A stretch of DNA of 64,000 nucleotides from Naegleria gruberi. Lineage: Eukaryota. Below the pieces are notes generated by a model, which had not been told where the DNA came from, did no database searches, and worked only from the letters and a program-made list of their open reading frames with translations. Location: NCBI GenBank assembly GCA_000004985.1, contig GG738865.1; one strand, 5' to 3'. Below are positions 3,833-30,758 of the stretch, piece by piece. The position numbers and the translations under genes are program-made. Numbering within the stretch: position 1 is the stretch's first letter; the number at the start of each line of letters is the position of its first letter.

Positions 3833-4924
3833 CTAAAAATCCTTAATTCCCTTCTCATTGCTGCCGTCACCATTCCTCAGATACATCATGACTGCAACAA
3901 ACAAAAGAATATTATGAGCATGTTTAACATCCACACAATTAATTTCCAAATACAAACTTCCATTACTTTTAAAAGCAATTAATTGAGCTCTCTTTCTTTG
4001 AATAATTCGTTCATAATCTGGAACTAGATCCGTTTTGTTTCCAATTAGTATACTTTCCACCTTTTCAGTTCCTTTGATATCATTAATATCATTCTCGGCT
4101 CTATCCAATGATTCTAAACGATTCAAATCAAACATTATCAAAGCAGTATTTGCATTCCTCTTGTATAAAGATGTATAAAAATAAGCAGGTTGATCCCATA
4201 ATTGCAAATCTCTAAGGATACCATCCCAAAGTTTGTAAATTTTGAATGTGTGTGCTGATGACACTACTCCAGGAGTGTAATCTCCAATTGATAAACTGTC
4301 AAGAGAGCTTTTCACAAAGCTCGTTTTTCCTACATGATGGTCACCCGTCATGATACATTTGAAAATTTTCTTATTGAACTCTAGGTTGTTTGAGGTGGAT
4401 ACAGAACTAGTGCTGGATGATAATAATCTCGACGAAAAATAAGAAAATAAATTGAATAAACTATTGGGAGATTCCTTTTTTGGTTCATCTTTTGGTTGTT
4501 CAATTTTTTTTGAAAGTATGTCAAAATAATATTCCACCAATTTCATTTCATCAAGAAACCAATTGGTTCTCTTTGGTTCGAATTTTTCCCATTCAAATCT
4601 TTGTCTTTCCCTTTTTTTAAATTCACTTCCTTCAAGAAATTCCACACATAATCCATAAATATGTTCCCTTAGCTTTAATTTTAGAAAATGGGTGAATAAT
4701 TTGTGTTCATTACAACTTTGAATATCTAACGAAGAATAGTTAATATTAGATAAAAATTCTGTAAATTGTTTGTAAATCTCCCGAAACGATAATTCTCTCC
4801 AGGATTCACAAACTCTTCCAATAGTGAAATATTGTTCTGGAATTGAAAAGAAATGATAAATCTCCAACAATAATTCTTCGGGAAGATTATTGATCGTGGC
4901 AACAATTTGTTGATTTTCTTTCAT
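3833..4924 (-). CDS. F-box domain fused to an atypical Rab-like small GTPase domain
   Basis: Real ATG at 4924 (MKENQQ…); the earlier M in the ORF track is a TTG. The N-terminus LPEELLLEIYHFFSIPEQYFTIGRVCESWRELS matches the F-box consensus. C-terminal GTPase motifs: P-loop GDHHVGKTS, switch-I Thr (DYTPGV) and an NKxD box (GNKTDL). DxxGQ is replaced by WDQPAYF, with no Gly or Gln, and the SAK box is degenerate (EINCVD). Confidence 0.7.
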   Translation of the reverse strand: MKENQQIVATINNLPEELLLEIYHFFSIPEQYFTIGRVCESWRELSFREIYKQFTEFLSNINYSSLDIQSCNEHKLFTHFLKLKLREHIYGLCVEFLEGSEFKKRERQRFEWEKFEPKRTNWFLDEMKLVEYYFDILSKKIEQPKDEPKKESPNSLFNLFSYFSSRLLSSSTSSVSTSNNLEFNKKIFKCIMTGDHHVGKTSFVKSSLDSLSIGDYTPGVVSSAHTFKIYKLWDGILRDLQLWDQPAYFYTSLYKRNANTALIMFDLNRLESLDRAENDINDIKGTEKVESILIGNKTDLVPDYERIIQRKRAQLIAFKSNGSLYLEINCVDVKHAHNILLFVAVMMYLRNGDGSNEKGIKDF

Positions 4925-8030: not shown

Positions 8031-10205
8031 TTACAAGTTCTTGTTACTCAATTCTAATGTGATTAAACCTCTAGCATAGGATACCCAGTAGATTCTATTC
8101 TTACTTTCAATGTAGAGGAATTCCTTCTTTGATTTGGCTAAGAAATTGTTGGCTATCACTCTCATACGAGTTTCCTTGGTTTGTTCAATGGCTTTAGTTC
8201 CAAGAATTGAGGCAGGTTTAGATTTAACAGTATTTGGATTCAAACTCTTTCTCTTTGATGAAATTGGTTGTGGAACAGAGAATTCATCATCGTCACTACT
8301 AACAACTTCAACATAGAAATCATCCAAAAGACCCTTATTTTCAGTAGTGAGGGTTGAGGTACTATCTCCAACATTGGTTCCATTATTTCTTACAGGAACT
8401 TCGCTAGTAACTCTTCTGTGAGCATTGGATAATCCTCCACCTGGTGAATTGGCAGGAATGTTTGGATTATTTTCAATATTGTTTGGACCAAACTTTTCTG
8501 GAACTTGAGTGAAATGTTCAACAATGGTAACATGTTCTGGATCCTTTTCATCTCTCATAATCTTAATAGAGTGATTGTAATCTGACAAGTTGAAATACTT
8601 CTTGTTGAATTGAATTCTGGTTACAGCTGGTTCTGCAGTTTCAATAAGTCTGAATTCCTTCTTGAAAGAGCTGATATCCTTTACAACGAGGACATTTTCA
8701 ACCAATTGAGGGAATTCCATTGATAATCTTCTAGAAGCACCCAACATTCCATATGTTGAGAACAATGAAGAGACATCATTTGGATTTAATTTTGGTTTCT
8801 CCTCAGCATTTGAAATATCTAAAAGTGATGGATCAACTCCAATGAAATTCATCATGTTTGCTTTTTCATTATTTTTGACATCAACTTGTGGATGAATGAC
8901 AAATTGGAGACGAAGTGGGCCAGTTTTTTGTTGTGGTCTATTGCTTTGAGTATTCATATTAGAAACCATATTCGAAAGTGAACTAAAGAAAGTATTGGAA
9001 TCATAACTCTTTCTCTTGGTCAATGGTTCACTATCAGCATCATCAGCAGAACTTGATCCTTGTCCAGAAACTCCACTAGATTGTTGAGAGGGAACATATT
9101 GATATGGTTTCTTCTTCTTTCCAATATATTCATTATTTGTGGTATTGTTATCATCCATATAAATTTCAATAACACCATTTCTGACAAAGCATTCCTTATC
9201 AACAATGTGACGATCAAACCAAACACCACTCATATACAATGAGCATGGTCTTCTGAGTGGATCCTTATCAAAGAATATCAAACAACGTTGATTAGAACGA
9301 TTGGTACGATCTTGGAAGCAATCTGAAACATATAATTGATCTCCAACAATATTATACAATTGATCAGAAACATCAAGCATAAAGTAATCAGATTCCTTGA
9401 TTATCTTTTGTGCAAACAATTGCAAGTCATGGAATCCATATTCAGGAGCATCTAATTCAGAACTTCTGTACTCTGCAGAGTCAAATAAATTCAACTCTCC
9501 ACTCTTCAAATATTCCAAGATGAGAGCAAAGTACTTTGGATTTCTATCAATAAAGTAGCATCCATTTTCATCCTTGATAAAACCCAAATGCTGATTTTCG
9601 TCCAACAATCTGGTAAAATAGTTTTCAAAGACTGTTGTTGAAGTGGACGAAACATTACTTAGTCTATTATTGTTTTGATTTGATGAAGAAGTAGTTCCTT
9701 CAGAAAAGCTCATTCTACTCTTACGATTGTGCAAATCAACAAAAGTTGAAAGTGAATTATAAGCCAAATTATTAGAATTGGTCAAATCACCACTACTTCC
9801 AGTACCACTATTACCTGCTGTTGTTGTTGTTGTTGGTGTAGAACCTTGAGGAGAGTTATTATTTGTTGTGGTTGTATTAGAAAGTGGTTGTTTTTGATGA
9901 GTTGTCTCCTGATGATTCAAGTAATTCTTCATGGCCAATTGGTAGGCTGTTGGAGAACGAATCTTTTGAGAGAAGGGCAAGCAATTGCCTGGAAAAACCA
10001 ACTCATTAATATTCGACTGATTAGCATTATTCTTATAAATTGCACTATGATGATATGAATTGAGAATAGTCTCACGAGTTGTATAGAGAATTTTACCTCC
10101 CACATTAAATTTGATCAATTGATGATAATGTGGAACTGGTGATGAAGAAGAACCACTACTACCACCACCTGACATTTGTTGTTGCTGTGCTTGCAGAGGA
10201 ATCAT
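8031..10205 (-). CDS. BTB/POZ (KCTD-type, BTB_2) domain protein with long low-complexity inserts
   Basis: The likely ATG is at 10205 (MIPLQAQQQQMSGGG…); the track start at 10232 is a TTG. The tetramerisation-type BTB motifs IKFNVGGKILYTTRETILNS and …CYFIDRNPKYFALILEYLKSGELNL are split by an N/T/S-rich insert. The C-terminal ~400 aa have no recognisable domain. Confidence 0.55.
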   Translation of the reverse strand: MIPLQAQQQQMSGGGSSGSSSSPVPHYHQLIKFNVGGKILYTTRETILNSYHHSAIYKNNANQSNINELVFPGNCLPFSQKIRSPTAYQLAMKNYLNHQETTHQKQPLSNTTTTNNNSPQGSTPTTTTTAGNSGTGSSGDLTNSNNLAYNSLSTFVDLHNRKSRMSFSEGTTSSSNQNNNRLSNVSSTSTTVFENYFTRLLDENQHLGFIKDENGCYFIDRNPKYFALILEYLKSGELNLFDSAEYRSSELDAPEYGFHDLQLFAQKIIKESDYFMLDVSDQLYNIVGDQLYVSDCFQDRTNRSNQRCLIFFDKDPLRRPCSLYMSGVWFDRHIVDKECFVRNGVIEIYMDDNNTTNNEYIGKKKKPYQYVPSQQSSGVSGQGSSSADDADSEPLTKRKSYDSNTFFSSLSNMVSNMNTQSNRPQQKTGPLRLQFVIHPQVDVKNNEKANMMNFIGVDPSLLDISNAEEKPKLNPNDVSSLFSTYGMLGASRRLSMEFPQLVENVLVVKDISSFKKEFRLIETAEPAVTRIQFNKKYFNLSDYNHSIKIMRDEKDPEHVTIVEHFTQVPEKFGPNNIENNPNIPANSPGGGLSNAHRRVTSEVPVRNNGTNVGDSTSTLTTENKGLLDDFYVEVVSSDDDEFSVPQPISSKRKSLNPNTVKSKPASILGTKAIEQTKETRMRVIANNFLAKSKKEFLYIESKNRIYWVSYARGLITLELSNKNL

Positions 10206-10676
10206 AATTTCCCAAAAGTTTAAATGTATCAAAACAACTGTAAATCAAAGAAGGCTTTCAACTTTTTTTAAATTTTTAAGAAAATAAAATTTGGATTGTT
10301 GCTGCTTGGAAAGGAGATGATGGATCACAACTAAAATTGACGAGAGAACCCATCACTGCCTATTGTTCTTTATTGTCACTTGAATGATATCTGGAGAAGG
10401 ATTGCATCCAAGTAAATTTACTGGGAGATGGGAACGCAGATAACAAATTGGTTCACTTAATCTTGGAGAGGAAAGTTGACCTCAATAATTGATATTTTGA
10501 ATCTGGTTTTTTTTTTCAAATGTGTCAACTGAGATGCATTCAAAGTTCATTGACCTGGCTTGAATGAGGAGAATATTCTGATATTCATTTCAATATTACA
10601 ATATTACAAAAATAGTTAATAAAGAATATTCACTTTTCCAAATTCAATCAATTTGATGAAAAATTAATTTAAAAAA

Positions 10677-16913: not shown

Positions 16914-19388
16914 TTAATTAAGAGAGGTAGTTGAAGTAGCGACGGATTCTGTTCTTCTCTTCATAGATTTAGATCCTTTTTTCGTATGATCTCCCAATAC
17001 AAACAACTTGTTCAATAAGTGGATTAACATTGGAACGCTTAATGTTACACTATCAAAATCAAGATTATTTTCTTCGTTAGCTTGTTTTTCCAAGAGTTCA
17101 TTCAAATCCAATTCTGATTTGATTGCAACAATTCCTGTTGCATTCACTACAACTACAAATATACCAGGTTTAGTTGATGAAATCTGAATTTTTACCATCT
17201 TTTTAAGGGTACTTGATAGTGTGGTGTTAGCAATAACACCCTTCTTTTCCAAGTCACTGAATTTGAAAGTAAAAGGTCCAACTGATCCTTTATCGGATGA
17301 ATCGGTTGGTTTGAATGTCTTGGAAAGTGTATTAGTAAAATAGGTATTATACATGTCTAGTTGGGTTTTGAGATACTCCCTCTTTTCGTTGATATCACTT
17401 AATACTGATGTAAGGACTTCAATCTTCTTTTTAAGTGTTTTTCTCATGAGCTTTTTTGTTTCCAATTCTTCAAATATTTCCTTGACTAACATGGTATCAA
17501 ATTCTTTCTGTTCTTCTTCAGTTATTTGGTCTTGTAAAAGTTTGAGTTGATCGATAGCTACTCCAATTCTCTTAGCAAATTCTGAGTTTTGTCTTTCATT
17601 ACATAATGTTTCACCTGCTAATAAAACATCTGAAATACTATAGGTAATGTCATCCTTTGGAAGAGAAGGCAAGTCTCTTAAAACAGTACTAATAAGATCT
17701 TTGACATTCTTTTTCAGAGTTGAATTATTTGCTAGACTGTCATTTAACTCTATAATTTGAGTTGGATTTTTCAACTTTAAATTGAAATAATAGTTATTCT
17801 TGGGCGAGAGAGCTTCTGGGGGAGGCCCAAACTTGTTCAATTGTTGAATAAACTTGTACAACAATTCATCAAATTCTGTTTTAGATGGTTGAGCTGATTC
17901 AGATGAAGATTCAATAGTCAATCGAGCACCACCAGTGTTTGCTGGTGTAGTTATTTCTTTCTTTTCACTATTATACATTGGCGAAGTTATAGTATCAATA
18001 TTTTCAAAGCAAAGTCTGTGAATGAGGGCAACTTCGTTATATGAAATGTTAACTGCTCCCACATCTCCAGAAAGTTCGAAAATTTCTGCCAACTCTAACT
18101 TTTCAGCAATTTCATCAATATCGCACATTCTCTTCATGTATTCGTGCATTTGTTTTGTGTACTTTTCTATAATTACATTGAGAGGAATCATATATTTTTC
18201 TTTAGCACCAAATGGAATACCATTACTCAAATTTTGAATTACTTTACAAATCATGGTAAGACTCTTTCTTTGATTGGTAGTTAATTTCTCTTGAATGATA
18301 TTCGATTGATCACTATCACAAGTGGTAATGGCTGGATTCACCCATCTCAAAAATATTAAGCCACCACAAAGTGAATAAATTTCCGTTTCTGTAGCATTAT
18401 TATAGGTTTCTTTACCGTATTGAAGAATTCTCTTACACATAAATCTAACACCGTATGGTGTTTCATCTACTGATTGGAAAATTCTTACCAAAAATTGTTC
18501 AACAGATTCAATGATTTTTTGTACGCGAGGTTTGATAATTTCAATAACCCTTTCATCATTTTCTGCTTCCTCTTCTGTTGCATTCATTGGGCCATCCCAA
18601 CTCTTTCCCTCTTGTAAGGCCTTTTGAACTAGTTGTTGATAAATTTTGTGAGAATTAATTTCCATATTTAAGGTCTTGTCGTTAATTACTTGTTCTATTG
18701 GCTCCTTAAGAACTTTCAATAGGAATTTATGATACATTGTACGACGAAGCATAGTTCCCAACATCTTAGTAAATGCTGTATTAGATCTCATGAATTCACC
18801 AATATATGAACATGTTTGATACTCCTTAGCTAAAACTCTTTCAAAAAGCATTAAGAGTAAATGTTCTTCTCTCTCATCAAATTGATCTCCAAATAATGTA
18901 AATACTACAGTTTGTAAAAACGTATCAACTTCTTTACCACGAATTAATCTTGTCAATATGGCAAGGTATTTAGGATCCTTTCTAAAGATGTAGAATATCT
19001 TTTGATAAATTGCTATAGCTTCATCTCTGAAACCCTGAGCATCATCTCTAGTTTTCATTTTGACTTTCTCAAATGATGAATCCAAAAGCTTTTTCATATC
19101 TTCTGCTTGAACATGGTTCTTGATGAGTAATCTAATCTTGTTTCCGAGAATTTCTACTTGTTGTTCAATAACCCAATTTTGTTTGGCCTCCAAAACTAAA
19201 TTCTTCTTCAATTCCGTTAATTTATCAACATCCTTGCTAGTTTCATCTTCAATTGCTTTACCTTCCTTCTTTAAAAAGGATTGAAGAGATTTTACAGAAA
19301 AGGTTCGAGAAAGAACAGCAACAGATGAAGTTGGTGGAGGAGGAATATAATTAGTGTGTTTTTCTTGTTGTATCGAATCGACGGACAT
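16914..19388 (-). CDS. IQGAP-related RasGAP-domain protein (824 aa)
   Basis: Real ATG at 19388. The RasGAP core reads YGVRFMCKRILQY…LCGGLIFLRWVNPAITTCDSDQS (the FLR..NPA signature), followed by a RasGAP_C-like coiled-coil region. The size and architecture resemble DGAP1/GAPA-type IQGAP-related proteins of amoebae. Confidence 0.75.
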   Translation of the reverse strand: MSVDSIQQEKHTNYIPPPPTSSVAVLSRTFSVKSLQSFLKKEGKAIEDETSKDVDKLTELKKNLVLEAKQNWVIEQQVEILGNKIRLLIKNHVQAEDMKKLLDSSFEKVKMKTRDDAQGFRDEAIAIYQKIFYIFRKDPKYLAILTRLIRGKEVDTFLQTVVFTLFGDQFDEREEHLLLMLFERVLAKEYQTCSYIGEFMRSNTAFTKMLGTMLRRTMYHKFLLKVLKEPIEQVINDKTLNMEINSHKIYQQLVQKALQEGKSWDGPMNATEEEAENDERVIEIIKPRVQKIIESVEQFLVRIFQSVDETPYGVRFMCKRILQYGKETYNNATETEIYSLCGGLIFLRWVNPAITTCDSDQSNIIQEKLTTNQRKSLTMICKVIQNLSNGIPFGAKEKYMIPLNVIIEKYTKQMHEYMKRMCDIDEIAEKLELAEIFELSGDVGAVNISYNEVALIHRLCFENIDTITSPMYNSEKKEITTPANTGGARLTIESSSESAQPSKTEFDELLYKFIQQLNKFGPPPEALSPKNNYYFNLKLKNPTQIIELNDSLANNSTLKKNVKDLISTVLRDLPSLPKDDITYSISDVLLAGETLCNERQNSEFAKRIGVAIDQLKLLQDQITEEEQKEFDTMLVKEIFEELETKKLMRKTLKKKIEVLTSVLSDINEKREYLKTQLDMYNTYFTNTLSKTFKPTDSSDKGSVGPFTFKFSDLEKKGVIANTTLSSTLKKMVKIQISSTKPGIFVVVVNATGIVAIKSELDLNELLEKQANEENNLDFDSVTLSVPMLIHLLNKLFVLGDHTKKGSKSMKRRTESVATSTTSLN

Positions 19389-23607: not shown

Positions 23608-24366
23608 TTTTTTTAATATCACTTGACAGTTGAAGGATTTTAAATTGTTTTATTTCACCAACATACAACTAACTCATTGAATTTTGATGTATTTTGAAAT
23701 AGTGAAATATTACATTTTTTCTTTTTCAATTTTGCAACTTTTTATGAAGATTTTTCAAGGAATTCAATTTTGAAATTGTAAAGTGGTGAAAATTGTAATG
23801 AATTTAAATGATTTTTTAGTGAAGTGATAACATTTGATAGATAACGAATAATACTTCAAATTTATTATCCTAAACATATACACAATCTTTCAAAATCTTG
23901 CAGCAATTTAATATGGATGCTGCTCTCGCCAATAAGTTCAATAATTATTCTTGGAAGGATTGAACGTAATGCATTCGTTAAAATTGTCTGCCTTTTAGTC
24001 AAGGATGGACAATCGATCCTATCCTCTTTAACTTGGAACCCAGTTACAATTCTCACTGTCACTTGTCAGTAATCGTAAAATTAAAAAAAACTGTTACACC
24101 TTCAACGTGTCGATCATCACACAGTTTTGATCTCAGAACAACAACAAAACATTATCTAGGTGATCCATCGAATCGTTGAAAGGATTTTGTAAATAATTTG
24201 TATGTGTGTGATTTTTAAACAACAAATTTACCTTCCGATCATTTTTAATAACAAAAATTTGACACTTGTATTTCTTTTTATATCTATATTTGATAATATC
24301 TATCGATTAATACTATCTAACATTGTTTATATTGTTTTGCGGATTATTTCAAAATCGTATAGAAAA

Positions 24367-27300
24367 ATGACGAAAGAAGACGAAAAGAAAGAGAAGGAAA
24401 GAATCAAGGAAGAAGAAAGAAAACGAAGGGAAGAAGAGAAAAGACGTAAAGAAGAAGAGAAGGAAGAAGAAAGAAAACGAAAGGAAGAAGAACGTCGTTT
24501 AAAAAAGGAAGAAAAGAAACAAAAAGAAGACCAAAAGAAAAAGGAAAAGGAACTTAAAAAACTCAACAAGAAACTAAATGCTTCATCAAATTCAAGTTTT
24601 GATGGTGCCCCTTCAACACCAACTTCTGAATTAAATGTTTCAATTGGTGATGTAAATGGTGATCCTTTGGGAGGTCTTTCCGAAACTGAACTAAATGAAA
24701 ATATTGAAAAGATGTTAAATTCTATTGGAGCTAAGGAAGATGTGAGAGAAGCAGTTCGTGCCAATCAACCTGCAATGAAATATATTTTATGGAAAACATG
24801 GTATGAACAGTCCAATGATGATAACATTATTCCTTCCATTGAAAAATTGATTGACAGAATGAATACAAGAAAGGATCGTGAGACAATGCAAGATGTTTTG
24901 GTTAAATTACGTAATTCTACAGTTGCCTGGGTTGATTCTTTTATTGATTGTGGTGGTGTGAAGAGTGTAAATGAAATTCTCTCCTCTACAAATTTATTGA
25001 AAAAGACAAAGAATAAGGACGATGATACTCTACAATGGTTATGTTTGAACTGTTTACGTGCTGTTTTAAATACTGAAAAGGGTTTAGCTGCAATTGCACA
25101 TGACAAGACAATCTTTTTCAATATGGCTCTATTGTTGGATTCTGAAAATATTGAAATTAGAATTCAATGTTTATTTATTTTTGCTAATTTTTGCTCTGAG
25201 GACAGTGTTGGAGATGGTTACAAAATTATTCTCTCATCATTGGAGCATTTCAAATTTATTAGACGTGAAAAGCAAATGTTTGAATTTTTAGTGACAAGTT
25301 TAGAAAATCAATTAGATGTCACCTATATGACACACGTTATTTTCTTATTCAATTCACTGTTAACAAATGCTGATCCAACTGATACTATTACACTCGCCAA
25401 TCAATTGAACAGTTTGAAGGTAGTTGAAGTAATCAGAGAACAAATTCAAGGGAAACAAATTGACGATGAAGGTTTCCAAGTTCAATTCCAAATGTTCGTC
25501 GAAGAAATGGAACAAGCTCTCAAAAAGAATGTTGTCCAAATTGATACTAACGATCCACACCAAATTACCGATCATTTGAGAATGAAAATTCAAGGTACTC
25601 AATCTATGGATAGTTTTATGAGAATTTTGAGACATTTGCTCGTATTTACCGATGTTTATGCAGCAAAGTTTACTCTTGAAGAAACTATTGAATTGTGGAA
25701 ACAAGTGGAATTGTCCGTTGAAAGATTAATTCGTGAAAGACAATTTCTTGTTGATAATATTCCTCAAACACCAACATGTGAAACTCCATCCTCTGCTACT
25801 CAACCTCTCCTTCTCAGTCCATTATTGAAGAAGATGAGACATGGTAAATCATTCAAGGACAATACAACTACTGATGGTGAGTCCATAGATGAAACATCGG
25901 TAGAAGCTACATCTGTAGCTGAAGAAGCTCTCCATAAAAGATTACTCGCTCAAGATGAAACCATTCAACAATTACAAGCCGAATTAAAGGAAAAGAAGGA
26001 AGAATTGGAATTACTTAAACAAGCTGGAGAAAGTGTTACTGGTCAAGTTGAAAAGGAAAAGCATGAAAAGGAGATTGAAAGACTTCAAGATAAAATCAAT
26101 ACTATTGAATCAGAGAACCAAACCTATCAAAAGATGATTTCCGTTCTTGAGGATACCAAGGAAAAGCTTAAAGAAAAGGTCAAATCACTTAAATCTAAAC
26201 CTAACGAATCCCCAATTGGAAATAGTCAAGAATTTTTCAAACTGAAAGACAAAGCTCAACAATTAGAACTAACCATCACTAAACTCACTACTGATAATGA
26301 AAATTTGAAGAAGCAACTTGAAGAAAGTAAGAAGAAAATAGAGGAAAGTAAGAAGGAAATTGCAGAAAAAAAGAAAGAAATTGAAGAAAGAAAGAAAGCT
26401 GCTGAATCTGTATCCACTACTGTTGTGACTGCTGTTCCACCACCTCCAGGTTCTACAGGATTCGTCCCACCACCTCCAGGTGATATGACTGGTGTTCCTC
26501 CTCCACCTGGCTCAACAGGATTTGTTCCTCCTCCACCTGGTGGTGTCTCAGATTCTGTACCTCTCCCTCCTGGATCAACTGGGTTTGTTCCACCACCTCC
26601 AGGTGGTTTAACTGGAGGTGTTCCTCCTCCACCAGGCATGACTGGTGTTCCTCCTCCTCCTGGAAGTGGTATACCTCTTCCTCCAGGTGTTGGTGTTCCT
26701 CCTCCTCCTGGAATGACTGGTGTTCCTCCTCCACCAGGTGGTGGTGTTCCTCTTCCTCCAGGTAGTACACCTCCTCCGCCAGGTAGCTTCTTACCTCCTC
26801 CACCAGGATTTATGAAACCTCCAAATGCCATGCCAGCTCTTCCTAAACTTCCAGATTTCAAATCAAATGCCAAACTTCGTGCCTTCCACTTTGGTAATAT
26901 TCAAAATAAGAGTGTTCCAGAAACTATCTTTGCCAAATTCAAAATTATTGATCAAACTCATACAATTTTACGTGATTTGGACACTGCAGAATTTGAGGAA
27001 ACTTTTGGAATTAAGGCAAGTGCAACTCCTGGTACAGGTACAACTGCTGAACCAAAGAAGGAAAAGATTACTCTCATTGATGGAAAGAGATCTCACAATA
27101 TCAGTTTACAATTAGGTTCATTGCGTGGTATTCCTTATCCAAAATTAAAACAAGCCATTCTCGAGTTGGACGAATCTGTAGTGACACCTAATAATATTTC
27201 AACTATCAAGCAAATTGTTCCAACAGAAGAAGAATCACAACTTTGTGTAGATTATGAAGGTGATCGTGATGAACTTCAAGTTGCTGATTTGTTCTTTATT

Positions 27301-28365
27301 GAAATGCACGGAATTCCAAAGATGGTTGATAGATGTGAAGCTTGGGAATTCAAGATGAAATTTGATGAAGTTATTGCTGGTATTGAACCAGTAATTGGCA
27401 ATATTAGAAAGGCATGTGCTGAATTGGAAAGTTGTGATCAATTCCACAAAATTTTGGGTGTTATTTTAACTCTAGGTAACTTTTTAAATAGTAGTAGCAA
27501 GAAGGTAGCTTATGCTTTCAAGATGGCATCACTTGCCAAGTTGAGCGATACCAAGGCAGCTAATGGTAAATCCAGTTTATTGACCTACTTGGTTAAATTT
27601 ATTCAAGAAAAGTATCCAGAATTGGAAACCTTCTATGAAGGGTTGACTTCCGTCAGTGGTGCCACACGTGTTGCTATCGGTTCAATTAAGGATGATATTC
27701 AACAAACTAATACTTCCATCAATAAGCTCAAGACTCTGTATGAACAGTGTGCTAAGGATCCATTGGAAGGGGATAAATTCCCATCTGTTATGGGTTCCTT
27801 CTTGGAGAAGGTTTCAACAAAAATCAAAACAGTTGAAGACAATTATGCCGCTATGATGACAGAATTGAAGAATGTTGCCCTCCTTTACAATGAAGCTGAA
27901 TCTGACATGCAAAAGGAACCTGACAAATTCTTCCAACTCATTGATGGATTTGTCAAGAGTTTCAACGATACTAAGGAAAAGTTGAGAAAGGAAAGAGAAG
28001 CCGAAGAAAAGAAAAAGAAGAAACAATTACCAACTCCAACCAAAGCTGGAGGAATTGGTATCAACACTTCAGGTATCAATAGAGGAACAAGATCTCCATC
28101 CACGAAAACTCCACAATCTCCAGGAGCTGTCTCTCCTAGTGATGAAAGAGGTGGTTTTGATAAGAAGGGTGCACTCTTATTGAAGAATGCTGAACTTTTG
28201 AGAAAGAGAAGAAATACTAAATTGAATAGTGTCGATTTAGATATGGATACAACCTCACCTCCAGCTCATACAAGAACTCCAAGTCAATTGAGTGGTCAAT
28301 TGAGCATGGGAGCTTTTTTAAATAAGCATATTGCTAATAATAATAGTGGTAGCAGCACTCAATAA
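24367..28365 (+). CDS. Diaphanous-related formin (GBD/FH3, coiled coil, FH1, FH2)
   Basis: Real ATG at 24367; the track start at 24202 lies upstream of a better A-rich ATG context. An N-terminal K/E/R charged stretch precedes armadillo-like GBD/FH3 (…LQWLCLNCLRAVLNTEKGLAAIAH…) and a coiled coil. FH1 has about 13 tandem Pro-rich units (GFVPPPPG / GVPPPPG). FH2 carries …ILGVILTLGNFLNSSSKKVAYAFKMASLAKLSDTKAANGKSSLLTYLV…. The C-terminus has a basic DAD-like region. 1333 aa, single exon. Confidence 0.9.
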   Translation: MTKEDEKKEKERIKEEERKRREEEKRRKEEEKEEERKRKEEERRLKKEEKKQKEDQKKKEKELKKLNKKLNASSNSSFDGAPSTPTSELNVSIGDVNGDPLGGLSETELNENIEKMLNSIGAKEDVREAVRANQPAMKYILWKTWYEQSNDDNIIPSIEKLIDRMNTRKDRETMQDVLVKLRNSTVAWVDSFIDCGGVKSVNEILSSTNLLKKTKNKDDDTLQWLCLNCLRAVLNTEKGLAAIAHDKTIFFNMALLLDSENIEIRIQCLFIFANFCSEDSVGDGYKIILSSLEHFKFIRREKQMFEFLVTSLENQLDVTYMTHVIFLFNSLLTNADPTDTITLANQLNSLKVVEVIREQIQGKQIDDEGFQVQFQMFVEEMEQALKKNVVQIDTNDPHQITDHLRMKIQGTQSMDSFMRILRHLLVFTDVYAAKFTLEETIELWKQVELSVERLIRERQFLVDNIPQTPTCETPSSATQPLLLSPLLKKMRHGKSFKDNTTTDGESIDETSVEATSVAEEALHKRLLAQDETIQQLQAELKEKKEELELLKQAGESVTGQVEKEKHEKEIERLQDKINTIESENQTYQKMISVLEDTKEKLKEKVKSLKSKPNESPIGNSQEFFKLKDKAQQLELTITKLTTDNENLKKQLEESKKKIEESKKEIAEKKKEIEERKKAAESVSTTVVTAVPPPPGSTGFVPPPPGDMTGVPPPPGSTGFVPPPPGGVSDSVPLPPGSTGFVPPPPGGLTGGVPPPPGMTGVPPPPGSGIPLPPGVGVPPPPGMTGVPPPPGGGVPLPPGSTPPPPGSFLPPPPGFMKPPNAMPALPKLPDFKSNAKLRAFHFGNIQNKSVPETIFAKFKIIDQTHTILRDLDTAEFEETFGIKASATPGTGTTAEPKKEKITLIDGKRSHNISLQLGSLRGIPYPKLKQAILELDESVVTPNNISTIKQIVPTEEESQLCVDYEGDRDELQVADLFFIEMHGIPKMVDRCEAWEFKMKFDEVIAGIEPVIGNIRKACAELESCDQFHKILGVILTLGNFLNSSSKKVAYAFKMASLAKLSDTKAANGKSSLLTYLVKFIQEKYPELETFYEGLTSVSGATRVAIGSIKDDIQQTNTSINKLKTLYEQCAKDPLEGDKFPSVMGSFLEKVSTKIKTVEDNYAAMMTELKNVALLYNEAESDMQKEPDKFFQLIDGFVKSFNDTKEKLRKEREAEEKKKKKQLPTPTKAGGIGINTSGINRGTRSPSTKTPQSPGAVSPSDERGGFDKKGALLLKNAELLRKRRNTKLNSVDLDMDTTSPPAHTRTPSQLSGQLSMGAFLNKHIANNNSGSSTQ
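26431..26830 (+). repeat. coding tandem repeat: formin FH1 poly-proline units (~13 copies of a 27-33 nt GGTxxxCCTCCTCCACCAGG period)
   Basis: Direct reading shows repeated ccaccacctccagg / cctcctccacctgg units. The overlapping antisense ORFs 26256..26873 and 26453..26803 are the G-rich complement of this repeat and are not genes. Confidence 0.85.
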
Positions 28366-28406
28366 ACTGCTAATATCTTTAAAAATAATAGAAATTATGA
28401 ATATAT

Positions 28407-29524
28407 TTACATGACATTACACTTTTTAGGTTGCTTTTGGACTCTCTTTTTACATTCGTCAATGAATGCTACATCGTATTCCACACAACCTTGCAACAGA
28501 GCTACATTGTCAACTCCGCCAAGTCTCTGTTTTCTAATAAGTTCTTCGAAAATAAGAGTGACATTCTCTCCAAGTTTAGCACTGCTCATCACTATTGAAT
28601 AGTTCAACAATGAATATTCTGAAATAATTGAATTGAATTCAGATTTATACTTCTCAACAGTTTCTGCTCTATTTTCTTTCAATAAATCCATCTTGTTCAT
28701 TACAAACACAATTGGCATGTCATTAACTACATAATCTTTACAACGAATCAACAGGTCAACTTGATAACGAACATCTCTCAAAGAACTTTCATCATTCACT
28801 GCACAAACAATTACAAAACTTTGACCAACTCTCAGGTATTGATCTCTCATTGCAGAGAACTCCTCTGGACCAGCTATTTTCAAAACATTATTCAAATATT
28901 CTATTAAAAACTCAAAAACATACCAGTATCTAGAATATCCAATAATACAGGCTCTCCATCAACCTCAACATGTTTTCTATAAGAATCCTCAATTGTTGGA
29001 TCGTACTCTGATATAAAGACATTTTGAACGTAGTGAATTGTCAATGCAGATTTTCCTAAAATAGCTTAGTTTTAAATTCAAATAATGAAATACTAACCCA
29101 CTCCTCCTTGCCCAAGCACAACCACTTTAACTTCTTCTGATCCCTTACTCGGATCATATTTTGGTCTTTTCCACACTTTAAACTTGATGAAACTTGCCAA
29201 TAGAATTTTCCTCTTCATATCCCCTTTTTTAATCATTTGTGATTTGAGTTGTTCCAACTCCTTTTCAAATGCAGGCATTACAAAATTCTTTTCCAATACT
29301 GTCCACCAAAATGTATTGAAATAGTTCTGCATTTCATTCATACTCGAAATTCTCTTGCTGATTGATTGAAAAATTGCTGCCATTCTAATGTCAGATTTTC
29401 TACTCGCAGGATTATTCAATTCTTTATCAACTCCGAATGATAAAATATGTTGGAAAATTTCATAGGGAAGTGATGAGAATAGCGTTTGATGGTGGTGAGG
29501 CATTTTTTTTCTTTCTTTTTGCAT
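28407..29524 (-). CDS. Ras-subfamily small GTPase with a ~140-aa N-terminal extension bearing an F-box-like motif, 3 exons, CAAX tail
   Basis: Real ATG at 29524. Exon A 29524..29098 carries [18 protein letters not shown] (F-box-like, weak) and ends …[17 protein letters not shown] intron 29097..29056 (42 nt). Exon B 29055..28924 continues the P-loop exactly as GQGGVG|[50 protein letters not shown] intron 28923..28874 (50 nt). Exon C 28873..28407 reads [23 protein letters not shown]…NKMDL…SAK…KKCNVM. The protein is roughly 60% identical to H-Ras across the G domain by eye. The position equivalent to Ras Gln61 is Pro (DTAGPEEF). Confidence 0.85.
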
Positions 29525-29696
29525 GTTCTTGATTTGATGTTTGTTGTTGATTGGTAAATTTGTGTTCGGGAGGAACGATGAACTTTGTTCCTGCTTTGTA
29601 ATACTTTATGAAAACATTATTTTGATCTTATTTGCTTAATTATATCATTGGAAAAGAGTTAAGGATAATAAGGATGTTGTGGTGTGTTGTAAAGTT

Positions 29697-30758
29697 ATGT
29701 TCAAATTCTGTGGATTGCTTGATATTTTGGCGCGTAATTTTTCAAGCCTAAAAAAAATGGAACGCATTGATTTGAATCAAACTTCTTGTGCGGAGGCACA
29801 AAGTAGAAATGATGTGCAACAACAAAATAATCATCAACAGACTGCAGCAATGGATAATAATGAGAATACAACAACAATAGAAGAATCCTTTAAAATAATT
29901 TCTAGTTCCAACACTAATGTTATCATTGATAAGGATTTATTGGTTAGGCTTCATCACTTTTATACTAGTCTGGAATCAAGTACTCACATTCAACAGGAGG
30001 ATTTTAACATTCTTTTATTCGGAACAAGAAAACACACATATCAAAATCAAAATATTTATATTGAATCTTTTAAAATTATTTATGATGAAAATATATTAAT
30101 TGATTACATTTCCAAGCACAAGGATGGAAATTTACAATTGTTGGGATTTTCTATGAATTTTGACAATTTTGATTATGATTTACAGGGAAAGATAAAGAAA
30201 CAGTTTCAAAAATTCCACTATATGGTATTAAAGCACTGTATTTTACAAAGATATTCCGGAGGTAAACATAAGAATATTTTGGAAAAGTATATTGGATTGA
30301 ATATCAAGTCGTTTGTACAGAATCAAGTTTATGGAGGAGATAGTGAAGTTTTTGTTCAATTATTAGCATATTATACCAAAGTATTCTCACCATATTTGAA
30401 AAATGAATATATTGATACAATATGTGCAAATGCCTTGTTGGATCAATCAGAAAACTTTGAATGTAAAATAACATATAGACAAGATATTAATTTAACTGTA
30501 ATTGCTGGTCAATCATCACAATTTGGAAATCATTTTCCATCCATTTCAGAATCTAATAATTCTTCTGGAGTAGATGAGTGTATGAATCATGTATTTATAG
30601 AAAATAATAACATTCCTTACCTGGAAGGTTGGATTAATGATCAATTGACCAATGAAAACTCCTCTGAAATATTAAAACTCTTGAAGGAATATGAGGAATT
30701 GGAAAAATTTAACAGCTCTCTAAGGGAAGAGCTTTATTTGGTTGAACAAGAGGAATAA
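29697..30758 (+). CDS. hypothetical protein (N/Q-rich N-terminus, no recognised domain)
   Basis: The track start at 29679 is GTG. The first in-frame ATG is at 29697 (MFKFCGLLDIL…). The frame is open for ~354 aa and coding-like in composition, but no domain was recognised. Confidence 0.35.
   Translation: MFKFCGLLDILARNFSSLKKMERIDLNQTSCAEAQSRNDVQQQNNHQQTAAMDNNENTTTIEESFKIISSSNTNVIIDKDLLVRLHHFYTSLESSTHIQQEDFNILLFGTRKHTYQNQNIYIESFKIIYDENILIDYISKHKDGNLQLLGFSMNFDNFDYDLQGKIKKQFQKFHYMVLKHCILQRYSGGKHKNILEKYIGLNIKSFVQNQVYGGDSEVFVQLLAYYTKVFSPYLKNEYIDTICANALLDQSENFECKITYRQDINLTVIAGQSSQFGNHFPSISESNNSSGVDECMNHVFIENNNIPYLEGWINDQLTNENSSEILKLLKEYEELEKFNSSLREELYLVEQEE

Follow-up and report, generated by a model that had tools for sequence, protein, structure and literature searches.

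Fusions of an F-box with Rab-like, Rho, Ran and Gα GTPases have been published for Naegleria, in which they are the commonest multidomain GTPase architecture and were read as a sign of possible GTPase-dependent ubiquitination (Herman et al. 2021, BMC Biol 19:142, PMC8296547 and its Supplementary Material 4). Our study concerns a Ras-like gene located at 29524/29503..28407 of a 64,000-nucleotide stretch of Naegleria gruberi DNA (assembly GCA_000004985.1, contig GG738865.1), which is referred to as the window. All positions are those of the window, and the Ras-like gene is read on the minus strand unless stated otherwise. Like the published fusions, and in the same organisms, its product places a conserved N-terminal extension, recognisable as an F-box in part of the members, ahead of a Ras-superfamily G domain. 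The group is likewise lineage-restricted, expanded and fast-evolving, and one published Rab-like subgroup also ends in CaaX. Unlike in those fusions, the G domain of the window protein belongs to the Ras family proper and has the same effector loop as H-Ras, and Ras is not among the published F-box partners. Its putative F-box is too divergent for Pfam, and the protein is not listed as an F-box carrier by Herman et al. By sequence comparison the extension of about 125 amino acids (aa) defines a Ras clade specific to Naegleria and Willaertia. What appears to be new, and is modest, is this clade with its cryptic F-box, part of which shares a Pro at the position of the catalytic Gln. The gene itself is already catalogued as a curated Ras, and the F-box-GTPase class is published for the genus; an earlier note on this DNA had called such a protein unusual, which is overstated in view of both.

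Compared with canonical Ras (H/K/N-Ras and the true Ras of Naegleria, e.g. FDP41_001513), the window protein has about 47% identity over the G domain and shares G1-G5, Gly12/Gly13 and Thr35. Its end, a polybasic stretch followed by a CAAX box, resembles that of K-Ras4B. It is set apart from canonical Ras by the Pro in place of Gln61 and by the 125-aa extension; moreover, about 10 residues are inserted between NKxD and SAK, and a conserved C-terminal helix, about 30 residues long, precedes the tail. As is generally known, RhoBTB (BTB, Cul3) and Rab40 (SOCS box, Cul5) also combine a G domain and a cullin-ligase adaptor in one polypeptide; the G domain of RhoBTB is atypical and hydrolysis-deficient, and RhoBTB is auto-ubiquitinated. 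In the window protein the presumed F-box would be the adaptor, for Skp1-Cul1. The GTPase family and the type of adaptor are nevertheless different, as is the place of the adaptor, which lies at the C-terminus in both RhoBTB and Rab40, and there is no homology beyond the G domain. Rap, which carries Thr61, and other natural GTPases without Gln61 are similar in that the catalytic Gln is replaced within an otherwise Ras-like switch II. However, Rap has a dedicated GTPase-activating protein (GAP), RapGAP, whose asparagine thumb supplies the catalytic residue in trans, whereas Pro is found, among the retrieved homologues, in the window family alone.

A further comparison is offered by TbFRP of Euglenozoa, a FYVE-F-box-GTPase protein from a member of Discoba that has, as proposed here, an F-box upstream of a Ras-like GTPase domain (PMC3593210). 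In contrast to the window protein, TbFRP contains FYVE, has no CAAX and carries a GTPase whose nearest relative is Rab18; its authors found no orthologue in N. gruberi (PMC3593210), and the fusions are therefore independent. A literature search joining F-box, Ras superfamily and Heterolobosea returned nothing further.

A Ras gene of the Naegleria/Willaertia lineage

The Ras-like gene consists of three exons, and the joined coding sequence of 1026 nt is in frame and encodes 341 aa. Translation from the second ATG (29503) gives 334 aa starting with MPHHH. The features of the gene are:

29098..29524, minus strand: exon 1, residues 1-142 and the first base of codon 143 (N-terminal extension, strand beta-1, first half of the P-loop)
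29056..29097, minus strand: intron 1, 42 nt, GTTAGT...TTTTAG, interrupting the P-loop codon Gly143
28924..29055, minus strand: exon 2, the remaining P-loop, the switch I/effector loop YDPTIEDSY and the DT of DTAG
28874..28923, minus strand: intron 2, 50 nt, GTATGT...AAATAG, interrupting codon Ala187
28407..28873, minus strand: exon 3, switch II, NKMD, SAK, the family-specific C-terminal helix, the polybasic stretch, CAAX and the stop
28409..28407, minus strand: TAA stop codon, directly after the coding end of exon 3 at 28410
29291..29479, minus strand: probable divergent F-box, residues 16-78 (motif, variable insert of 15-20 residues, then the second conserved part and FWW)
29132..29290, minus strand: helical linker (residues 79-131) that joins the F-box-like motif to the G domain, specific to the family and conserved across it
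28866..28868, minus strand: CCA codon of Pro189, the equivalent of Ras Gln61, wholly within exon 3
28410..28451, minus strand: polybasic stretch and CAAX box CNVM, with C-x-x-M/Q kept in the family

Herman et al. list in their Table S8 a manually corrected N. gruberi "Ras", XP_002677816.1*, for which the field "additional domain(s)" is empty (PMC8296547). The spliced product is identical to this sequence at 341/341 residues; the gene is XP_002677816.1 of Naegleria gruberi NEG-M and was thus already catalogued. Independent manual curation therefore reached the same three-exon structure. Alignments with the family are continuous over both exon junctions, and the exon joining put forward in the earlier note is, as far as the comparisons go, correct, as are the near-canonical Ras G domain and the CNVM end that follow from it. 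Upon exact look-up, neither the 341-aa nor the 334-aa product was present in a collection of 15 billion proteins.

Within the G domain, the P-loop GQGGVGKS occupies residues 138-145 and is interrupted by intron 1, and the effector loop YDPTIEDSY is identical to H-Ras residues 32-40 at 9/9 positions. G4 (NKMD) lies at residues 246-249, G5 (SAK) at 284-286 and CNVM at 338-341. Gly12/Gly13 of the P-loop, Thr35, DTAG, NKxD and SAK are all present, and the set G1-G5 is complete. The Pfam Ras profile (PF00071) matches residues 133-301 with E=2.4e-36 (125.2 bits against a cut-off of 21.6), and the nearest solved structures are those of H/K/N-Ras at about 1e-40. Six of the ten residues preceding the CAAX Cys are K or R. 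A CAAX box in which X is Met directs farnesylation.

A second copy of the locus was found via the profile of the N-terminal extension. This metagenome contig of 4145 nt (ENA ERZ929261, hereafter L001), which carries the open reading frame (ORF) of exon 1 (P0126), is 98.07% identical to window positions 28300..29700. Both introns have the same length in L001 and keep their GT..AG ends, with one substitution in intron 1 and two in intron 2, and the frame of 334 codons that opens at the second ATG is uninterrupted. The donor GTTAGT of intron 1 had been suspected as non-consensus; this was rejected, since it is an ordinary GT donor, which L001 shares without change and on which the published curated model also relies. 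Differences in the coding sequence comprise 8 synonymous and 3 non-synonymous changes (N67D, H171Q, Y278C), with a dN/dS ratio of 0.09 (binomial test against neutrality, P=2e-4), and substitutions per site are about 3 times as frequent in the introns as in the exons. Judged from this pair of sequences, the gene is intact, functional and under purifying selection.

The same contig bears on the start codon. The A-run separating ATG 29524 from ATG 29503 differs in L001 by a 1-nt indel, so that the upstream ATG is no longer in frame there; for this reason the conserved start is probably ATG 29503 and the published 341-aa model probably begins 7 codons too early. P0126 begins at the second ATG, and the paralogues begin with MAPH.

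The closest database proteins are entries named "ras family small GTPase" of Naegleria gruberi, N. lovaniensis, N. fowleri and Willaertia magna, several of which match over the full length including the extension. In the full-length alignment the family shows, from the N-terminus, an LPxEIxxxILSF motif, a variable loop, FQSI[NS]K, FWW and the helical linker; these are followed by the Ras G domain, in which about 10 residues are inserted between NKxD and SAK, and then by the conserved helix LL..IE.D, a KKK stretch and C-x-x-M/Q. At least 17 proteins from N. gruberi, N. fowleri, N. lovaniensis and Willaertia magna have this architecture in common. When 1.84 billion representative proteins were searched exhaustively with the N-terminal profile as a hidden Markov model (HMM), 42 matches were obtained, among which there was no named family member beyond Naegleria and Willaertia; the other family-like matches came from environmental contigs. 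A word-indexed homologue search with the N-terminal alignment gave just two proteins. Each member of the clade may be described as a Ras G domain that is preceded by a cryptic N-terminal F-box with its linker and followed by a family-specific C-terminal helix and a polybasic-CAAX tail; together with the mechanism proposed below, this description has in our view somewhat better than an even chance of being right.

Several paralogues have a degenerate P-loop (GSERVGKS, GCGGAGVS) or switch II (DTIESD, ETSEHD, NVLGTD, DVNYSE), namely XP_002673059.1, XP_002675968.1, C9374_008220 of N. lovaniensis, and 013949 and 006886 of Willaertia. NKxD and CAAX are retained in all of these except XP_002675968.1. 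From such sequences the clade seems to be drifting towards pseudo-GTPases. Two other paralogues, XP_002668509.1 (P0001) and XP_002673033.1 (P0121), cluster at 90% identity or above; they come from separate scaffolds of 9.6 kb and 337 kb. P0001 is without four switch-II residues, reading EEFSNQYM where P0121 reads EEFSTWRDQYM. The difference looks like a splice mis-model, or else as if the reference assembly contained a duplicate or haplotype scaffold.

Substitution of the catalytic glutamine

Switch II reads DTAGPEEF, as the earlier note had stated, and matches H-Ras at 14/17 residues; at the position of the catalytic Gln61 stands Pro189, encoded by CCA at 28868..28866. On the evidence of the alignment this is the sole change of a catalytic residue in the G domain. 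The codon lies wholly inside exon 3, and alternative splicing therefore cannot restore Gln. Nor is the Pro a sequencing error, since L001 keeps the CCA codon.

Six family proteins from two genera have Pro in this column. They are the product of the window gene, XP_002673033 (with its near-identical copy XP_002668509), an N. gruberi entry from unassembled reads, C9374_001793 of N. lovaniensis, and two Willaertia proteins. In the best 120 homologues the column holds Gln in 82, Thr of the Rap type in 32 and Pro in 4, all 4 of the latter being family members. In the counterpart from N. fowleri the residue is Leu. Among the other paralogues it is Gln, His or Ser, and in some DxxG or the P-loop is gone altogether. 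In a neighbour-joining tree, Pro-bearing proteins occur in both the Naegleria and the Willaertia branches. Taken from these alignments, Pro61 is a trait common to part of the clade and not a private mutation. It had been considered that Pro might be ancestral in a known non-Ras subfamily with a different mechanism. The Pro is indeed common to a lineage-specific subfamily, but this is not one previously characterised with a known mechanism. The conserved Pro61 is absent from the discussion in Herman et al. 2021.

Some points about the Pro weigh against the explanation favoured below. Whether Pro arose once, long ago, or repeatedly is more than the neighbour-joining tree can tell, because a single step leads from CAA to CCA. 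BI-2865 is an inhibitor of the inactive state. In a 2025 study, 3T3 cells with KRAS Q61P tended to retain their sensitivity to BI-2865, a point against a full GTP lock. As summarised in PMC6813200, HRAS Q61P did not transform cells in focus assays, like the wild type, yet its GTPase was reduced about 8-fold, the same as in the other codon-61 mutants tested; the reduced GTPase itself speaks for the favoured explanation. Pro61 need not mean that the protein is GTP-locked.

Alternatively, the Pro61 protein could cycle normally, either through a GAP that supplies the catalytic residue in trans or because slow intrinsic hydrolysis suffices; this possibility is independent of the F-box question. The Rap-type Thr proteins, 32 of the best 120 homologues, are normal switches, three Rap1 paralogues are present in Naegleria (PMC8296547), and the lack of transformation by HRAS Q61P and the KRAS result just described point in the same direction. 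However, no cognate GAP was identified, and DxxG or the P-loop is lost in many sister paralogues, which suggests that the clade gave up fast cycling. Normal cycling is somewhat unlikely in our judgement.

Nature of the N-terminal extension

The extension preceding the G domain is about 124-131 aa in length, shorter than the 140 aa first assigned to it, and the F-box-like motif reported in it is present. It is likely, on profile comparison, that it is a genuine but divergent F-box. With HHalign, the profile of the whole family aligned with a reference F-box alignment at 94% probability over 23 columns, and that of the insert-free members at 93.5% over 46 columns (template positions 4-49), spanning the whole F-box, although the reference was built partly from the profile's own matches and partly from general knowledge of F-box sequences and is not fully independent, a point against the F-box. 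The controls gave 0.1% for reversed alignments and at most 1.5% for 30 column-shuffled alignments. Most paralogues have weak matches to Pfam F-box-like (E=0.007-0.08); XP_002674532 just reaches the cut-off of F-box-like_2 (21.7 vs 21.6), and 013756 of Willaertia matches F-box-like with E=0.0011 across 42/47 profile positions. The matches of the N-terminal profile outside the family are genuine multi-copy F-box proteins with leucine-rich repeats (LRR) and FBD (F-box/LRR/FBD); the matches are located exactly at the start of the Pfam F-box and cover helix 1 alone.

Other results speak on the same side as the dependence of the reference. The search for an F-box that the earlier note had advised failed with Pfam for the window protein itself, as F-box-like scored 11.9 bits (E=0.19) against a cut-off of 24.3 and covered residues 16-30 alone, whereas the profile-profile comparison succeeded. 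For the Naegleria members, F-box helix 1 alone aligns within the 23 columns. A search of PDB sequences with the extension profile gave nothing significant; FBXL5 and Legionella AnkB appeared at E of about 0.4 amid SHP2 noise.

These results can also be accommodated by a lineage-specific helical domain serving regulation, dimerisation or localisation, in which LPxEIxxHILSF is a relic or a chance resemblance, and the protein would then be an atypical membrane-bound Ras. Besides the sub-threshold Pfam score and the short alignment of the Naegleria members, such a domain would be consistent with the insert of 15-20 residues at the place where F-box helices 1 and 2 should pack, with the lack of an F-box from fold searches and with the lack of an extra domain in the list of Herman et al. 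Nevertheless, the whole F-box aligns in the insert-free members with clean controls, F-box-like is the best or near-best Pfam match for most members, and among the multidomain GTPases of these genomes fusion to an F-box predominates. A helical domain of another kind is therefore regarded as rather unlikely, and the divergent F-box is preferred.

The linker (residues 79-131) has no Pfam match. AlphaFold2 (AF2) predicted helices at 63-81, 84-97 and 104-116 for the linker region with modest confidence. A further protein (P0150/P0164; ENA and NCBI, on contigs of up to 931 kb) has two tandem N-terminal modules of the family type (LPxxxLIxIxSYC, Pfam F-box-like 8e-6) followed by ankyrin repeats, and no Pfam Ras-domain match was found in it; the N-terminal module therefore occurs also apart from a Ras-family G domain. 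Another match of the N-terminal profile, the saposin repeat protein P0155, was discarded as a false positive assembled from several weak stretches.

A proposed model for signal termination

The explanation we favour overall, by a little more than an even chance and from sequence comparison, is a Naegleria/Willaertia Ras clade with a cryptic F-box, slow hydrolysis and a proteolytic end of the signal. The protein would be farnesylated and located at the membrane, where it would bind GTP but hydrolyse it slowly. A conventional RasGAP acting through an arginine finger would be unusable, because that mechanism needs Gln61. The F-box may dock onto Skp1-Cul1. Two outcomes can then be imagined. The protein may be a substrate receptor dependent on the nucleotide state, which presents Ras-effector-like partners for ubiquitination. 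Alternatively, it may itself be the target of turnover dependent on the Skp1-Cul1-F-box (SCF) ligase. In either case the signal would be ended by proteolysis and not by GTP hydrolysis.

A stronger version of the model supposes that a true Ras was fused to an F-box in the ancestor of Naegleria and Willaertia and that the change from Gln to Pro was a selected state; SCF proteolysis would then be the off-switch, or the GTP-bound face would bring effectors to the E3 ligase. We regard this version as tentative and on balance improbable. If it is true, the clade would offer a natural module in which Ras acts as a ubiquitin-ligase receptor, and a natural experiment on the effect of Pro61 in Ras.

The earlier note went further in another direction, by describing Q61P as a constitutively GTP-locked oncogenic allele, of which the present gene would be a genome-encoded counterpart. 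Gln61 is needed for intrinsic and RasGAP-stimulated hydrolysis. The loss of GTPase, about 8-fold, extends to all HRAS codon-61 mutants tested, Pro included (PMC6813200). The description is nevertheless overstated, since the slow HRAS Q61P did not transform; for this reason, and because its intermediate decrease in RAF affinity is a computational prediction, the analogy with the oncogene is weak, and a GTP-locked counterpart is distinctly unlikely. Least of all can the gene be a decaying paralogue or an annotation artefact of a birth-and-death family, with Pro as a neutral lesion: pseudogenes and dynamic birth-and-death evolution are described for divergent Rab-like GTPase clades (Herman et al., PMC8296547), several sister genes are degenerate (e.g. 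XP_002673059 with GSERVGKS and DTIESD) and the original automatic gene model required manual correction, but the ORF is intact in two independent sequences, all nucleotide-binding motifs save Gln61 are canonical, Pro is conserved across genera, and this very improbable reading was rejected as largely refuted on the dN/dS ratio, with its slower exons, and on conservation.

Should the F-box prove functional, the F-box fusion partners reported so far in Naegleria, namely Rab-like, Rho, Ran and Gα domains, would be joined by the Ras family proper. It would strengthen the published idea that GTPase signalling is wired directly to cullin ligases in this lineage, and it would add an SCF parallel to RhoBTB (Cul3) and Rab40 (Cul5). 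Domain tables built on Pfam record too few F-boxes for these genomes. On hydrolysis, GAP sensitivity and effector binding, the literature on human RAS Q61P gives an inconsistent account, and Pro61, set in a switch II and effector loop that otherwise equal those of Ras, offers a clean natural variant for all three. The basic picture is unaltered, as the gene is catalogued and the class of architecture is published.

Genomic surroundings

The resemblance to an F-box-GTPase at 3833..4924 (minus strand), pointed out in the earlier note, is borne out. The product of 363 aa matches Pfam F-box (3.2e-6) and F-box-like (1.5e-6) at residues 11-53, and Ras (7.6e-13); both F-box and Ras exceed their Pfam cut-offs, and by these domains it is an F-box-GTPase fusion of the published Naegleria kind, 24 kb from the Ras-like gene. 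Its switch II, LWDQPAY, is without the DxxG glycine and the catalytic Gln, and the product is likely hydrolysis-dead.

Other genes of the window carry domains of related interest. An 824-aa ORF at 16914..19388 (minus strand), about 10 kb from the Ras-like gene, contains RasGAP (8.3e-45) and RasGAP_C, a domain pair that looks IQGAP-like. A formin (FH2 6e-83 and Drf_GBD) is encoded at 24202..28365 on the plus strand. It lies tail to tail with the Ras-like gene, their stops being about 40 nt apart, and the genome is very compact at this boundary. A 733-aa ORF at 8031..10232 (minus strand) has a BTB_2 domain (2e-12).

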